DNA from: Shigella phage Sf23
Length of the DNA: 64,000 bases
Strand: one strand, 5' to 3'
Sequence record: MF158046
The notes beneath the pieces are model-generated. The model was not told the DNA's origin. It made no database searches and was given only the letters and a program-made list of their open reading frames with translations. Below are positions 1,178 through 60,835 of this stretch, one piece after another. Position numbers and translations under genes: made by a program. Numbering within the stretch: the first letter of the stretch is position 1; the number at the start of each line of letters is the position of its first letter.

Positions 1178-1202
1178 AGTGCTCTCCTCTATAAGATAAT
1201 TT

Positions 1203-1240
1203 TATTATACCATACTCATTTTGGAAAGTAAACCGGTAAA
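1203..1240 (-). promoter_or_regulatory. T4 early-type promoter (sigma70-like)
   Basis: Minus strand reads GTTTAC-18nt-TATAAT (rc of 1228..1233 and 1204..1209); follows a terminator hairpin. Confidence 0.6.
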
Positions 1241-1243
1241 ATG

Positions 1244-1267
1244 AAAAAAGGACTCCCTAGGGAGTCC
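1244..1267 (-). terminator. rho-independent terminator after soc
   Basis: Palindrome GGACTCCCTAGGGAGTCC followed by T6 on the minus strand. Confidence 0.7.
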
Positions 1268-1275
1268 TTGAATTA

Positions 1276-1512
1276 TTAACCACCTATTTCTGTAGGCGTA
1301 AACATTGCAGCATTCTTAGTTTTCCAAGTTGCTGCATCGGAAACTACATCAGAATAAGCTGCTTTTTCTGACGGAAAGATTTGATAATGAGAATCTGCAA
1401 TACGGTGTTCATTTGAATATACATCAAATGCTACAGAAACTTCCATACCTTTAACTTCTTTGCCTTCACCTGCTGGATGAGTAAAGGTCTTGATGTTAAC
1501 GAAACCACCCAT
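1276..1512 (-). CDS. soc: small outer capsid protein Soc
   Basis: 78-aa product; similarity to recalled T-even Soc (VNIKTF...HYQ.FPSEKAAYS); late promoter TATAAATA just upstream; terminator downstream. Confidence 0.85.
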   Translation of the reverse strand: MGGFVNIKTFTHPAGEGKEVKGMEVSVAFDVYSNEHRIADSHYQIFPSEKAAYSDVVSDAATWKTKNAAMFTPTEIGG

Positions 1513-1543
1513 AATAAACTCCTTTATTGTTTAATTACAGGTG

Positions 1544-1551
1544 TATTTATA
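1544..1551 (-). promoter_or_regulatory. late promoter (gp55-dependent) for soc
   Basis: rc is TATAAATA, about 30 nt upstream of soc ATG. Confidence 0.65.
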
Positions 1552-1693
1552 ACTTACAATTTAGCGGCTTTCCAGAGTTGTTCAATAATCTCTTGGTCTA
1601 TTTCTTTAGTTATTTCATTACGTAATAAAGCAGTAAGGGCTTTCGCCCTTTTCTTATTCAACTTTTTGAGTTGACGTTTATTTAAACGAGACA

Positions 1694-2212
1694 TTAATAA
1701 CCTCGGTCCTGACGTGCGAAATTTTCAGCATTTTTCAGGTAATAAAGTTTAAAGATTTCTTCAGCTGTAAGACCAAGACCCTGGAACATATTCAGAACGA
1801 AATGAAGAATATCAATCATTTCAAATTTAATTTCTAACTGGTCTTGCGGAGACAAATCAGTAATCAGAGTTTCACGACGCTCACCATGCTGCGACTTCCA
1901 AGGTTTCCATACAGCAGATGCGTCTTTTTCACCATTACTCATACCACCAAGAGAAGTCAGAAGTTCACGGAATTCATCGTCAATATAATCTTTCTGATTA
2001 CGCAACCAATCAACAACTTCACCGGCAGTAGCCAAGTCATCAGGATGACGATTATATTCAGGTTTATCTTTAGCTAAACGAATTTGCAGAGATTTCTGCA
2101 TGTCAAGCATTACCTGCAGCGGGTCTTTTTCATCACCGAGAATATCCCAATATTCATTTTGAGCTTTATCAGCGCCTTCGATCAGTTGACTACATTCGTT
2201 GAAATGTGGCAT
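1694..2212 (-). CDS. 56: dCTP pyrophosphatase (dCTPase/dUTPase) gp56
   Basis: 172 aa, matches T4 gp56 size and position between soc and 61; MazG-like acidic motifs (EFRELL, EEIFKLY). Confidence 0.9.
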   Translation of the reverse strand: MPHFNECSQLIEGADKAQNEYWDILGDEKDPLQVMLDMQKSLQIRLAKDKPEYNRHPDDLATAGEVVDWLRNQKDYIDDEFRELLTSLGGMSNGEKDASAVWKPWKSQHGERRETLITDLSPQDQLEIKFEMIDILHFVLNMFQGLGLTAEEIFKLYYLKNAENFARQDRGY

Positions 2213-2244
2213 GTTATTTTTCCTTTCAATTCATGGGTTAGTAG

Positions 2245-2272
2245 ATTAATTATACAATAAATATATAAAGCA
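2245..2272 (-). promoter_or_regulatory. middle-promoter-like element upstream of gene 56
   Basis: Minus strand reads ATTGCTTTA-12nt-TATAAT with the same spacing as the 17652 element. Confidence 0.4.
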
Positions 2273-2285
2273 ATAAGGAGGACAT

Positions 2286-2486
2286 ATGGTACAAAAATTA
2301 ATGGCACTTGTTAATGCCATAAAAGGTAATAAAAAACGTATAGCTTTTACTATTTCTGCTATGGTAGGAATTTTACTCTGGAACTTTATTCTATCACCTG
2401 TTGCAATTGCGCATGGTATTAATATTCCAGTAGTTACTCTTGATACATTTGTAGATTTAGCATTTGCTTTAGTTGGGTTAATTTAA
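2286..2486 (+). CDS. candidate small hydrophobic protein encoded antisense to the gene array (66 aa)
   Basis: Plus-strand ORF exactly filling the 56-61 intergenic gap; AAGGAGG 6 nt before ATG; predicted TM segments. Overlaps a minus-strand middle-promoter-like element, so could be spurious. Confidence 0.3.
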   Translation: MVQKLMALVNAIKGNKKRIAFTISAMVGILLWNFILSPVAIAHGINIPVVTLDTFVDLAFALVGLI

Positions 2487-3511
2487 ATCTTAGCATATTT
2501 AGATAGCCGCATTTTAGCCATCAACCCCTGGGCAATATTATTTTTCATATATTCCATAATTTGTTCAGGGGTTGCACCTTCCTTTCTAATCATATCATTA
2601 ACATCTTTTGATTTCCAGGGAGATTTATCCCAAAACATAACCCTTTCTCCTGCATCAACTAATTTAGTCATTCGCTTAATAGTGTCAGGATGACGAGGTT
2701 CATTATCTAAGACCCACACACGCCTATCTTTAAATGGAACAACTTCTAGGTCTAATTGACCACCCGTAATAGCTATACCATTTTCAATAAAAAGCGAATC
2801 TATAGGTCCTTCTAGAACATATACATCACCATCTTTGACTCGTTCGACTCCATAGATTTTTGTTGCCTCAGGATAAGCTTTGATGGTGATATATTTTTGA
2901 GGAGCATCTTTCTTTAATGCACGTCCTTGAAAAGACTCAGCTTTTCCGTTAGCATTATAAATTGGAATAACAAGACGAGGCTCAGGTGTTTCCTTTTTAT
3001 ATGTTCCTGGAGCTATACTATTAACTAATTTAGGCCATTCAGTTGTAAACCAAAGATATTTCCATTTATCCTTTGGAATACAACGAGCTTTTACATATTT
3101 TATAATTGGATGGTCTTCCGCCAGTTTATCTAATCTAACACACGACGGAAGAGATTTAATTATTTTCTTCTCAGGTTGTTTAGGAAGTTCTTTAGGTTTT
3201 TCTACTGGACGACTTTTACCTTTTTCTTTTCTTATTTCAAAGATATACTCACGATATAAATCGGGTTCAAACTCCTTTAAATATATTCCGATTGGTGCAT
3301 GATAGTTACAGTTATAACAATGAATATTTCCTTCATTATTATCACCATAATACCATCCACGAGCTTTATTATGATCGGTTTTTGAATCTCCACAAACAGG
3401 GCATCTAAACCGCAATTTAAAAGTTGAACTATTGTTTACTTGTGTGAATTTAGGTAAATGAGCTAATGCACGATACGCAAACTCATTATCAATCCAAGGT
3501 ATTGATGACAT
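2483..3511 (-). CDS. 61: DNA primase gp61
   Basis: 342 aa as in T4 gp61; N-terminal zinc ribbon CPVCGDS...CYNCNYH; TOPRIM-like core; synteny with 41. Confidence 0.92.
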   Translation of the reverse strand: MSSIPWIDNEFAYRALAHLPKFTQVNNSSTFKLRFRCPVCGDSKTDHNKARGWYYGDNNEGNIHCYNCNYHAPIGIYLKEFEPDLYREYIFEIRKEKGKSRPVEKPKELPKQPEKKIIKSLPSCVRLDKLAEDHPIIKYVKARCIPKDKWKYLWFTTEWPKLVNSIAPGTYKKETPEPRLVIPIYNANGKAESFQGRALKKDAPQKYITIKAYPEATKIYGVERVKDGDVYVLEGPIDSLFIENGIAITGGQLDLEVVPFKDRRVWVLDNEPRHPDTIKRMTKLVDAGERVMFWDKSPWKSKDVNDMIRKEGATPEQIMEYMKNNIAQGLMAKMRLSKYAKI

Positions 3512-3513
3512 TT

Positions 3514-3678
3514 TTACTCTTCTTTTTCTTTAGATTCCTCTTTCTTCTTTTTAGGAATCTGTTCAGGACCTTTATTTACTACAGCGCCTGACGTTGTTCC
3601 AGTAGAGATATTTTCAGGATTACCACCTGAATCTCCAGCTACCATATCTTCTTTAATAAATTCTTTATATGTTTTCAT
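3514..3678 (-). CDS. small protein with internal-protein-like capsid targeting N-terminus (54 aa)
   Basis: Hand-translated ORF below the track cut-off: MKTYKEFIKEDMVAGDSGGNPENIST...KEESKEKEE; ATG 1 nt after the stop of ORF 3680..4036; N-terminus matches T4 IP capsid-targeting consensus MKTYQEFIAE. Confidence 0.45.
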   Translation of the reverse strand: MKTYKEFIKEDMVAGDSGGNPENISTGTTSGAVVNKGPEQIPKKKKEESKEKEE

Positions 3679-3724
3679 ATTAACCTCTATTCATAAAAGC
3701 ATTAAAAATTTGGTCATCAATAGA
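3676..3724 (-). repeat. 49-bp direct repeat copy A (gene 3' end + stop + next start)
   Basis: CATATTAACCTCTATTCATAAAAGCATTAAAAATTTGGTCATCAATAGA; 46/49 identical to copy B at 4034..4082. Confidence 0.9.
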
Positions 3725-4036
3725 TGGCACAGTAATATTTTCTGCATCATTTAGCAAATCATTAATTTCATCAGATAGCATAACACATGTGCCTTTATTT
3801 CCTGTAATTGTTACTGCACAATTACGAACGTTTTCTTTATCAAATTTTAGGTTAATATTTTCGTAGTGAAAATCCTTTAATGCCGAATATATCTTTAAAA
3901 TGAAATTGTCTTTTACTACAATAAACCCAACCTCACTATTAAAACGTGGTTCATGGAAACTGTAATAAACCTTTTCATCTATAAAATCGTATGAAATTTT
4001 TTCCATTTTTAAATATGAAAATTCAGAACTATACAT
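3680..4036 (-). CDS. hypothetical protein (118 aa), shares C-terminal tail with next gene
   Basis: ORF in the 61-41 accessory cluster; C-terminus SIDDQIFNAFMNRG encoded by a 49-bp repeat also found at the end of ORF 4038..4679. Confidence 0.55.
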   Translation of the reverse strand: MYSSEFSYLKMEKISYDFIDEKVYYSFHEPRFNSEVGFIVVKDNFILKIYSALKDFHYENINLKFDKENVRNCAVTITGNKGTCVMLSDEINDLLNDAENITVPSIDDQIFNAFMNRG

Positions 4037-4082
4037 ATTAACCTTTATTCATAAAAGCATTAAAAATTTGATCGTCAATAGA
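4034..4082 (-). repeat. 49-bp direct repeat copy B
   Basis: CATATTAACCTTTATTCATAAAAGCATTAAAAATTTGATCGTCAATAGA; encodes shared tail SIDDQIFNAFMN[KR]G. Confidence 0.9.
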
Positions 4083-4679
4083 AACATTTACTTTAGACTG
4101 TTTTTCTGATGGTAATTCATATCCACATATTACAATTTTGTGATCAATATCAAAATACACAGAAGCAATATGATTAATGATGTTTTCAGTAAAGTCTAAA
4201 TCAACATCAATATCTTTTTGACCACAGCCCAAAGGATAAATAATGCGAGTAATTCGATTATCTTTAACAAATATTCCACCGACATACTCTGTGCTGCGTT
4301 TAAAGTTTACACGTTTCCTAAATGAAAAATATTCAGGTTCTTTATGAGCCCGACTCATAGGACACAATGAGTAGCTAGAATAAGAGATGTCAAATCCTAC
4401 ACCTTCAATATGAGCCAACGCGTCATGATTAAACCAATTATAATCATATGCCAAATCCATTATATTGTAATATGTGAAAGGCACAGGATTAACATCATAT
4501 GTTGTACCTTTAAAATCTGCCCAGGCAACGATTTCGTTATCTTTAACAATTACAAAAATTACACCAATATGATATCCGTTATTATTTTCATTCGGCGTTA
4601 TATTATAACATTGTGCATCAGGAAATTTACCGTATTTAAACGGTGGATTTTTGTGCATATAATAAATCATATTATTCAC
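4038..4679 (-). CDS. hypothetical protein (213 aa), 61.2-position
   Basis: ORF in 61-41 cluster; C-terminus SIDDQIFNAFMNKG (repeat-encoded). Positional equivalent of T4 61.2; product identity not verified. Confidence 0.55.
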   Translation of the reverse strand: MNNMIYYMHKNPPFKYGKFPDAQCYNITPNENNNGYHIGVIFVIVKDNEIVAWADFKGTTYDVNPVPFTYYNIMDLAYDYNWFNHDALAHIEGVGFDISYSSYSLCPMSRAHKEPEYFSFRKRVNFKRSTEYVGGIFVKDNRITRIIYPLGCGQKDIDVDLDFTENIINHIASVYFDIDHKIVICGYELPSEKQSKVNVSIDDQIFNAFMNKG

Positions 4680-17690: not shown

Positions 17691-19373
17691 TTAAACCATT
17701 ACAGTAAATCGACCAACTTTCTTCATTTGAAGATGCTGACCATATTCTTGCGGGTCATGGTCTTTATGCGAAATTATAAAGACATTAGTGTTTTTCATTG
17801 AATTTATAATATTAGCTACACCTTTAATACCTTCGGCATCAAATGACCCATCAAACACTTCATCGAGTATTAACGTACTAATACTAACACCAGATACAAT
17901 AGAAGCAATATCACGCCAAGTAAATAAAAGAGCAATATCAATTCGTGCTTTTTCACCTTCACTAAATGAAGCATAACTAAAATCTTCACGACCACGGGAT
18001 TTAATTGTCTCATTAAATTCTTCATCTAATGTAAACACATAATCCGCTTCCATTATTTTAAGATAATGGTTAATCTGCTTATTAAATAATGGAATGTACT
18101 TTTTAATAATAGCACCTTTAATACCAGAATCTTTGAGCATATCAGTCAAAATTCCTCGGTGGTATTTTTCCATTACTAAATTAGTTTTTGTCTTAACAAT
18201 TTTATCAAGTTCTTCTTGAAGCAGTGCTATTTCATCAGCATGGTCAATAAACTCAGAAGATGCTTTTTCTATAGCTGCTTTAACTTTTTTAGCTTTATCT
18301 ACCGTCGTGATTAGAGATTGCTTTTTATTGCGAATATCATTTGCCAACGACTGTTGGGTTTTAATATTATCTCGGTATTCATCAACAAGAACTTTTAAAT
18401 TATCACGATGTGTTGAAAGCTGTTCAAACGAATGCGTACATTCAGAAACTTTATCTTTAATTTTAGAAACAACTTTATCACCGGAACTTAATTGTGACAA
18501 ACAGGTTGGACATAATCCACCTTCGTGATACATATTAATGACTTTATTATACGAGTCAATTTTTGATTTAATTAAAACTGCTTCTTGACCGATTTTATTA
18601 AATGCATCAGTCGGGTCTTCGTCTAAAACAATATTAACTAATCTTTCATTAGCTTCTTCTATTTCCGATTTTAGCGTTCTAGCTTCTTTTGCCAAATCAT
18701 CATACATATTTTGCAGACGAGTAAGGTTGTCACCCGTTAATTTTTTCTGGCGTTCAACGTTATCATTATATATTTTAATTTGTTGGATAATACTATCTTT
18801 TTTAACGTCAAGCACTTGGTTTTGTGAATTTAATTCACGTATTAGTGCTTTATTAAGCTTATCCATTTCAGCTAATGTTCCTACCTCGAGCAGGTCTTCC
18901 ACAAGCTTTCTTCGCGCGGGGGTCGACAAACCCATGAAAGGGGTATACCCTGCTGTACCAAGGACAACAATCTGCTTGAAACTGGCATATGACATTCCGA
19001 TAAGCTGTTCAAATTCTGCTTGGAAATCTTTACTGCTGGCAGATTCATTAAGACGTGTACCGTTAACGGTGATTTCGAAAACGTTTGGTTTTTGTCCTCT
19101 TTTGATATAGTACTTTTTCTCATCATATTCCATCCACAGTTCAACTAAAAGTTCTTTCTTATTTGTGCTGTTTATTAATTGACCTTTCTTTACATCACGA
19201 AATGGCTTGCCAAAAAGCCCAAATGTGATGGCTTCTAACATAGTAGACTTACCACCGCCATTTCGGCCAGTAATAAGAGTTTTTTGAACCTTATCTAATT
19301 GAATGTCAATAGGATTTCCACCTACTGACATTATATTTTGATACCTAACTCGGTTTAGTTTAAAATTCTTCAC
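17691..19373 (-). CDS. 46: recombination endonuclease subunit gp46 (Rad50/SbcC-like ATPase)
   Basis: 560 aa as in T4; Walker A GRNGGGKST, zinc hook CPTC, signature FSEGE, Walker B LILDEVFD. Confidence 0.93.
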   Translation of the reverse strand: MKNFKLNRVRYQNIMSVGGNPIDIQLDKVQKTLITGRNGGGKSTMLEAITFGLFGKPFRDVKKGQLINSTNKKELLVELWMEYDEKKYYIKRGQKPNVFEITVNGTRLNESASSKDFQAEFEQLIGMSYASFKQIVVLGTAGYTPFMGLSTPARRKLVEDLLEVGTLAEMDKLNKALIRELNSQNQVLDVKKDSIIQQIKIYNDNVERQKKLTGDNLTRLQNMYDDLAKEARTLKSEIEEANERLVNIVLDEDPTDAFNKIGQEAVLIKSKIDSYNKVINMYHEGGLCPTCLSQLSSGDKVVSKIKDKVSECTHSFEQLSTHRDNLKVLVDEYRDNIKTQQSLANDIRNKKQSLITTVDKAKKVKAAIEKASSEFIDHADEIALLQEELDKIVKTKTNLVMEKYHRGILTDMLKDSGIKGAIIKKYIPLFNKQINHYLKIMEADYVFTLDEEFNETIKSRGREDFSYASFSEGEKARIDIALLFTWRDIASIVSGVSISTLILDEVFDGSFDAEGIKGVANIINSMKNTNVFIISHKDHDPQEYGQHLQMKKVGRFTVMV

Positions 19374-60812: not shown

Positions 60813-60820
60813 TATAAATA
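60813..60820 (+). promoter_or_regulatory. late promoter for gene 53 (plus strand)
   Basis: TATAAATA on plus, about 28 nt upstream of gp53 ATG. Confidence 0.65.
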
Positions 60821-60827
60821 GATAATA

Positions 60828-60835
60828 TATTTATA
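60828..60835 (-). promoter_or_regulatory. late promoter for gene 4 (minus strand), divergent from the gene 53 promoter
   Basis: rc is TATAAATA, about 27 nt upstream of gp4 ATG; the two late -10 boxes sit back-to-back within 25 bp. Confidence 0.6.

Follow-up and report, generated by a model that had tools for sequence, protein, structure and literature searches.

Sequence conservation identifies the 66-aa ORF at 2286-2486 (plus strand), in the short interval between gene 56 and gene 61, as a real gene that is held under purifying selection and that has kept its position by the primase gene. We consider it probable that the interval is a compact junction with back-to-back transcription units, in which this real 66-aa gene is expressed late and encodes a membrane protein; the late timing and the membrane topology, like any role of the protein, are what we infer. 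An initial annotation of this DNA had described the interval as lacking the dam-sized gene expected there and as holding an antisense small ORF. The observation was real, and its interpretation is only partly right. The 56-61 locus is a common arrangement among T4-like phages that has already been catalogued and, since identical proteins are already deposited, the window (the whole 64,000-nucleotide stretch that was analysed) brings no novelty of its own.

The stretch is T4-like and was assigned to the genus Tequatrovirus. Its bases 1200-3600, matched by a total of 808 phage records, correspond to phage EO1 at 98.5% and to phage wV7 at 96%. This segment carries, all on the minus strand, soc (1276-1512), gene 56 for the dCTPase/dUTPase (1694-2212; phrog_173, E 2e-46) and gene 61 for the DNA primase (2483-3511; phrog_47, E 3.9e-107), the last two also being annotated in relatives. 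The distances first reported hold: exactly 270 bp (2213-2482) separate genes 56 and 61, and the gap of about 180 bp between 56 and soc measures 181 bp.

The 66-aa gene and its family

The predicted product aligns to PHROG 2024 along the whole profile (E 1.4e-31), with residues 2-66 covering positions 1-65 of 65. Members of this family agree with it in length, position and orientation, and those of several deposited phages, Shfl2 and UTI-E2 among them, are 100% identical proteins. Its equivalents include RB32ORF030w, F412_gp242 of wV7 (YP_007004774.1), JEP6_140 and bas38_0145 of AugustSocin; the records of wV7 (where it is noted as similar to RB32ORF030w), JEP6 and AugustSocin list a hypothetical protein. 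T4 itself has a copy at 17738-17938, of equal length and with two amino-acid differences, inside the gap between dam and 61. This copy is not listed in NC_000866, AF158101 or the original record X01416, and omics studies built on the NC_000866/AF158101 annotation will miss the gene. A literature search, which covered T4 ribosome profiling, start-site maps and unannotated small ORFs as well as RB32ORF030w, found no published transcript, ribosome-footprint or peptide data for the ORF in any phage.

The stop codon of the ORF overlaps that of gene 61 (TTAA at 2483-2486), so that the two genes converge. The ORF had been called antisense, which overstates an overlap limited to these 4 nt, stop on stop; the remainder of it lies opposite the untranslated stretch 3' of gene 61.

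By tblastn, the ORF occurs in 691 phage records, about 500 of them at an identity of at least 90% and 190 at 44-57%. The more distant matches are Mosigvirus and Gaprivervirus, and in almost every record listed the ORF adjoins or overlaps the primase gene. It lies on the plus strand between 56 and 61, converging on 61, in wV7, JEP6, AugustSocin, T4, G2469 and UPEC01, and the B-type of the protein occupies the same position in WG01, Marfa, Q7622, PM2 and CGG4-1. Either the A-type or the paralogous B-type adjoins the primase gene in eight Tevenvirinae genera and in Marfavirus, with the B-type alone at this site in Dhakavirus, Marfavirus, Kanagawavirus, Mosugukvirus and Gelderlandvirus. Six residues (W32, N33, P38, G44, P48 and V50) are invariant over both types. 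Gaprivervirus has a tandem second copy, of the B-type, which shares 45% identity with the first across 42 residues. It lies between that one and gene 61. The second copy is intact in UPEC01 (L018 3201-3401, translated), is matched by near-identical sequence, read as DNA only, in two other Gaprivervirus sequences (L010 and L011), and is interrupted or deleted in three more (L014, L016 and L017).

Pairwise Nei-Gojobori estimates of dN/dS are 0.10-0.15 within Tequatrovirus and 0.07-0.13 within Mosigvirus; within Gaprivervirus, where the second copy exists, they are relaxed, at 0.29-0.56. Between genera dS is saturated, and the proteins are still about 50% identical. Variable columns of the alignment number 45, 21 and 56 at codon positions 1, 2 and 3, respectively.

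A profile built from A-type and B-type members and searched against 5.8 billion proteins returned 115 clusters, mostly of 56-74 aa and with no Pfam domain. These are small proteins, unnamed or misnamed, and their longest contigs are of T4-like genome size. Some deposits call members of the family 'DNA packaging ATPase', 'dCTP pyrophosphatase', 'thymidylate synthase' or 'Holin', the misnamed entries being found under MW233709, NC_031065, KY979109, MN850621 and UniProt A0A482MZV5.

The dam and segF cassettes

In T4, dam had been placed near 56/61 and segF next to 56, with some doubt over the exact sites, and the reference records bear out this placement: their order is soc, segF, 56, dam, 309 unannotated bp and 61. 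Both genes are indeed absent from these positions here, as tblastn found no homolog of T4 Dam (best E 0.38) or of T4 SegF (best E 3.2) anywhere in the 64-kb window. The same holds for HEMP5, a complete genome that is colinear with the window at 93-99% identity, in which Dam has no match at E <= 1 and the best tblastn match to SegF has an E of 0.95.

SegF is a free-standing GIY-YIG homing endonuclease whose gene is an insertion at the soc/56 junction (PMC2988022). The window has at that place a basic ORF of 46 aa (1554-1694, minus strand; phrog_14392, E 5.4e-25), which is hypothetical in wV7 and JEP6. Thus the gap that was said to leave no room for segF does lack this gene, but it is not empty. 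The stop of gene 56 and the ATG of the 46-aa ORF share bases (TAATG), so the two may be translationally coupled. The ORF is rich in lysine and arginine, and a G+C-rich hairpin (1635-1650) lies inside it.

Aligning the region with T4, as had been proposed, confirms that dam maps between 56 and 61 there and locates the boundaries of its cassette. The blastn breakpoints against both T4 and JEP6 fall at 2254|2255 and 2274|2275 of the window, where a 20-bp segment (2255-2274) stands in place of the 899-bp dam cassette. Elsewhere the junction is occupied by different inserts. In fPS-90 it has a homing endonuclease immediately 5' of gene 56, in DK-13 one that separates the small ORF from gene 61, and in the IMG/VR contig L009 an insert of 1448 bp. 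This variety of cassettes marks the junction as an insertion hot spot. We conclude that dam and segF are accessory cassettes and that the window has the compact form of the 56-61 junction.

Two elements of the first interpretation fall away at this point. At an identity of at least 90%, T4-type Dam is found in 182 phage records, far fewer than hold the small ORF at the same threshold, so that a dam-sized gene is not what one should expect here. Nor is the ORF present instead of dam. T4 and JEP6 hold dam together with the same ORF, and we therefore rejected the small ORF as a replacement for dam. Without dam, this lineage should not methylate GATC sites in its own DNA, and this could alter its fate against host nucleases that are sensitive to methylation or dependent on it.

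It is possible, if doubtful, that the short gap is the scar of a recent deletion, with dam (and segF) present in an ancestor and lost later. JEP6, whose flanks are about 91-97% identical, holds dam exactly here, and its breakpoints are those of T4. Moreover, the elements of the window run in the order -10, ATAAATA, MotA box, whereas those of T4, Mosigvirus and Gaprivervirus run -10, MotA box, ATAAATA; with an order unlike that of T4 and the outgroups, the junction of the window has been remodelled at least once. Against a deletion stand the genera in which 56, the small ORF and 61 follow each other without an intervening dam (Mosigvirus, Gaprivervirus, Dhakavirus, Mosugukvirus and Gelderlandvirus), which make the dam-less state the parsimonious ancestor, and the cassettes of fPS-90, DK-13 and L009, which point to repeated use of the same junction for insertion. 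The outgroups thus favour a dam-less ancestor, but the junction of the window is a remodelled one. Whether gained or lost, dam stays an accessory gene.

The neighbouring gene 56 lies at a mosaic boundary. Compared over 1694-2254, it is only 75% identical to T4 (L004 2271-2826) and about 91% identical to JEP6 and L009, and its flanks are 88-97% identical to T4. The result is a sharp boundary beside the segF site, as expected from marker exclusion by a homing endonuclease.

Transcription and translation signals

A Shine-Dalgarno sequence, AAGGAGG, precedes the 66-aa ORF at 2275-2281 (plus strand). The initial annotation had described a hydrophobic plus-strand ORF of 66 aa with AAGGAGG six nucleotides before the ATG; the ORF and the motif are both present, but the spacer is of 4 nt (ACAT), six being the spacing of T4. 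Every lineage examined has GGAG or GGAGG ahead of the ORF. Further upstream, ending 22 nt before the ATG, lies the late-promoter-like element AATAAATA (2256-2263, plus strand), a form of TATAAATA carrying A at -13. The plus strand showed no sigma-70-like promoter ahead of the ORF. At T4 late promoters, the transcription start depends on gp55, gp33 and gp45. From this motif and its position, we infer a gp55-dependent late start near 2269, which would give a leader of about 17 nt.

The 50 T4 late-promoter sites compiled by Geiduschek and Kassavetis comprise 32 perfect ones, 9 with A at -13, which is the commonest natural variant, and a remainder with single deviations; T4 late transcripts run in either polarity, and the in vivo strength of the variants is not established (PMC2988020). 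The element of the window has the features of such a site, namely TATAAATA at about -13 to -6, in which single deviations such as A(-13) are tolerated, no -35 element and a short distance to the start of the gene. Late genes that lie in early regions provide a comparison. Both soc, with TATAAATA at 1551->1544, and a 164-aa ORF, which we take to be the lysozyme gene e, with TATAAATA at 49847->49840, share with the 66-aa ORF an 8-bp motif 22-36 nt upstream, a ribosome-binding site with an ATG, and a short leader. In contrast to them, the 66-aa ORF has the A(-13) variant and lies on the plus strand, opposite its early neighbours.

The ATAAATA core has 15 copies in the window, where 39.5 +/- 7.3 would be expected; all 100 shuffled sequences had at least 15. 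This depletion, of about 2.6-fold, is consistent with selection against stray late promoters. More than half of the sites (8/15) are placed 22-36 nt 5' of an ORF that starts with ATG and has at least 66 aa, soc and the 164-aa ORF among them. The depletion and this placement at gene starts together make ATAAATA an informative motif in this genome. Two perfect copies of TATAAATA at 60813-60835 lie on opposite strands with a 1-bp overlap (60813-60820 plus, 60835->60828 minus) in a span of 23 bp; each is 26-28 nt before an ORF (196 aa on the plus strand, 150 aa on the minus strand), and the arrangement resembles a divergent pair of late promoters.

Nine of ten distinct lineage contexts retain ATAAATA 13-22 nt ahead of the ATG of the small ORF: that of the window, that of T4 and JEP6 (where it belongs to the end of the dam cassette), and those of Mosigvirus, Gaprivervirus, WG01, Marfa, Q7622, PM2 and PEi20. 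The leaders are otherwise unalignable, and the motif is present in dam-plus and dam-less ones alike. The lone exception is CGG4-1, which has ATTAAATA in place of ATAAATA. The first position of the promoter is never T in Tequatrovirus, Mosigvirus and Gaprivervirus. The record X01416 marks no late promoter beside the T4 copy of the ORF.

On the minus strand, the middle-promoter-like element that had been noted for gene 56 was found at 2249-2274. It consists of the MotA box ATTGCTTTA (2274->2266), a spacer of 11 nt and TATAAT (2254->2249), in agreement with the MotA/AsiA pattern of (a/t)(a/t)(a/t)TGCTT(t/c)A near -30, 11-13 bp and TAnnnT. The sequence upstream of gene 56 as far as the -10 (breakpoint 2254|2255) aligns with the T4 promoter P(M)16.53 in X01416, which annotates its mot-box and -10 just upstream of the T4 gene 56 start, and the fPS-90 record annotates the same element as a predicted middle promoter. 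The pattern TGCTTYA-N11-13-TANNNT is found 15 times in the window, where 2.3 +/- 1.5 are expected, with 13 of these sites on the minus strand; the MotA-type pattern is thus enriched about 6.6-fold, nearly always on the early/middle minus strand. The late element AATAAATA is located within the spacer of the middle promoter, and as a consequence two divergent promoters would share about 25 bp.

A terminator scan also found, on the minus strand at 2291-2320, a terminator-like hairpin, ATGGCATT-AACA-AGTGCCAT, followed by TAATTTTTGT. The hairpin (2320->2291) folds at -8.9 kcal/mol (z -2.3), lies some 165 nt past the stop of gene 61 and faces codons 2-12 of the ORF, its stem being opposite codons 6-12. 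With its U-tract it is a plausible terminator of gene 61 transcripts, and the fPS-90 record lists it as a terminator. We looked for it in Mosigvirus and Gaprivervirus and found it conserved in neither; hence it cannot explain the conservation of the ORF. For the plus strand, the scan found no terminator between 2486 and 3700, so the late transcript may run antisense into gene 61. An Rfam scan of 1200-3600 gave nothing credible, and a repeat scan gave short chance pairs only. In the 3' end of gene 61 there is an inverted repeat, CAACCCCTGGGCAA at 2522-2535 and TTGTTCAGGGGTTG at 2561-2574, with 25 nt between its arms. It lies 36-88 nt beyond the stop of the small ORF, is without a U-tract, and could pause or end a plus-strand transcript.

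We propose that these signals act as two back-to-back units. Transcripts of the primase gene would end at the minus-strand hairpin (2320->2291), and the MotA/AsiA-dependent promoter (2274->2249) would then start the message of gene 56. Late in infection, AATAAATA (2256-2263) would most likely let the gp55-RNA polymerase start an mRNA with a short leader, on which the strong ribosome-binding site would drive translation of the 66-residue protein. The protein would be inserted into the inner membrane, its N-terminus remaining cytoplasmic.

The predicted protein and competing readings

The 66-aa protein is strongly hydrophobic (GRAVY 1.25). All five of its lysine and arginine residues are in positions 4-18, and acidic residues occur at 53 and 57, where they are conserved among A-type proteins. 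AlphaFold2 predicts helices at 2-12, 16-42 and 52-63 (mean pLDDT 78.6). There is one clear transmembrane helix, at about residues 19-42, which contains the invariant W32-N33 and P38; the N-terminal helix is basic and amphipathic, and the C-terminal one is short and hydrophobic, has the two conserved acidic residues and leads to the end ...AFALVGLI. By the positive-inside rule, the N-terminus would be cytoplasmic and helix 16-42 would cross the inner membrane. We thus predict a small protein of the inner membrane, N-terminus inside, whose C-terminal helix may be either a second membrane segment or placed on the periplasmic face. Residues S37-P38-V-A40-I-A42/H-G44 look like a signal-peptidase or release boundary, and may or may not act as one.

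Searches gave no link to a protein of known function, Pfam (E <= 10) and NCBIfam (E <= 1) both being empty. A BFVD fold search with the AlphaFold model found family members only. An exhaustive HMMER search of 1.84 billion representatives returned three close clusters, fragments and long repeat proteins (P0032 and P0036), the last being compositional artefacts. The T4 proteins RI and Imm and the class II holins are like the 66-aa protein in size, in having one or two hydrophobic helices and in their predicted envelope location. It shows no sequence or profile similarity to any of them, and its gene is not in a lysis cluster. Our best guess, held weakly, is a dispensable late function in the envelope, for example in lysis timing or superinfection sensing.

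Other accounts of the ORF have to be weighed against a late gene for a membrane protein. That it is untranslated, and that the DNA is conserved as the 3' UTR and terminator of the primase gene and as promoter DNA of gene 56 with the open frame incidental, seems to us very improbable. The minus strand does have the terminator-like hairpin and the middle promoter within or beside the ORF, and the T4 reference lacks an annotation of it; but substitutions are concentrated at third codon positions with a dN/dS of about 0.1, the frame, length, ATG and ribosome-binding site persist where the DNA is only about 70% identical or unalignable, the hairpin is not conserved outside Tequatrovirus, and no Rfam family matches. 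It is quite unlikely that RNA is the main product, in the form of a late plus-strand transcript that is antisense to gene 61 and shuts down the primase mRNA late, with the ORF secondary. The convergence of the two genes with overlapping stops and the lack of a plus-strand terminator from 2486 to 3700 would suit such an RNA, and T4 transcribes both strands at several sites at different times (PMC2988020). However, selection acts on the ORF at the protein level, and the ORF persists without an overlap with gene 61 in DK-13, where the homing endonuclease lies between them, and in CGG4-1. The protein might also be a holin-type or lysis-timing factor, a late inner-membrane protein that modulates holin T or lysis inhibition, which we regard as rather unlikely. 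It is small, membrane-embedded and predicted to be late, a 91%-identical relative in phage OE5505 is named 'Holin' in one database, and residues 37-44 resemble a signal-peptidase or signal-anchor-release boundary of the kind seen in the T4 antiholin RI. Holins typically carry a hydrophilic, highly charged C-terminal tail. Here the distribution of charge is reversed, with lysine and arginine at the N-terminus and a hydrophobic C-terminus, and the holin families of Pfam give no match at E <= 10; the label of the OE5505 relative is thus unsupported. Nor is the gene beside the ORF with a lysozyme-like start (near 49.8 kb). The T4 set of lysis genes (t, e, rI, rIII and the spanins) is regarded as complete, and no r mutant is known to map at 56-61.

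We therefore return to the late gene for a membrane protein as our preferred reading. A more speculative version of it, to which we give a small chance, is that this late inner-membrane protein has an undiscovered role, whether as a regulator of lysis timing or lysis inhibition, or as a signal-anchor-release protein or cleaved periplasmic peptide, or else that the late transcript serves also as an antisense switch for the primase mRNA. If true, a gene by the primase in nearly every T-even-type enterobacterial phage would have been overlooked in the T4 reference annotation. As a single conserved, probably late, membrane protein, the family is in any case a clean and cheap knockout target in the best-studied phage.

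Beyond gene 61, at 3680-4036 and 4038-4679 (minus strand), are adjacent ORFs of 118 and 213 aa, both of which are labelled gp61.2 in wV7. T4 has one 61.2 only. The two ORFs share the ending ...IDDQIFNAFMN(R/K)G, and a DNA repeat of about 50 bp is found at 3675-3724 and 4034-4082.
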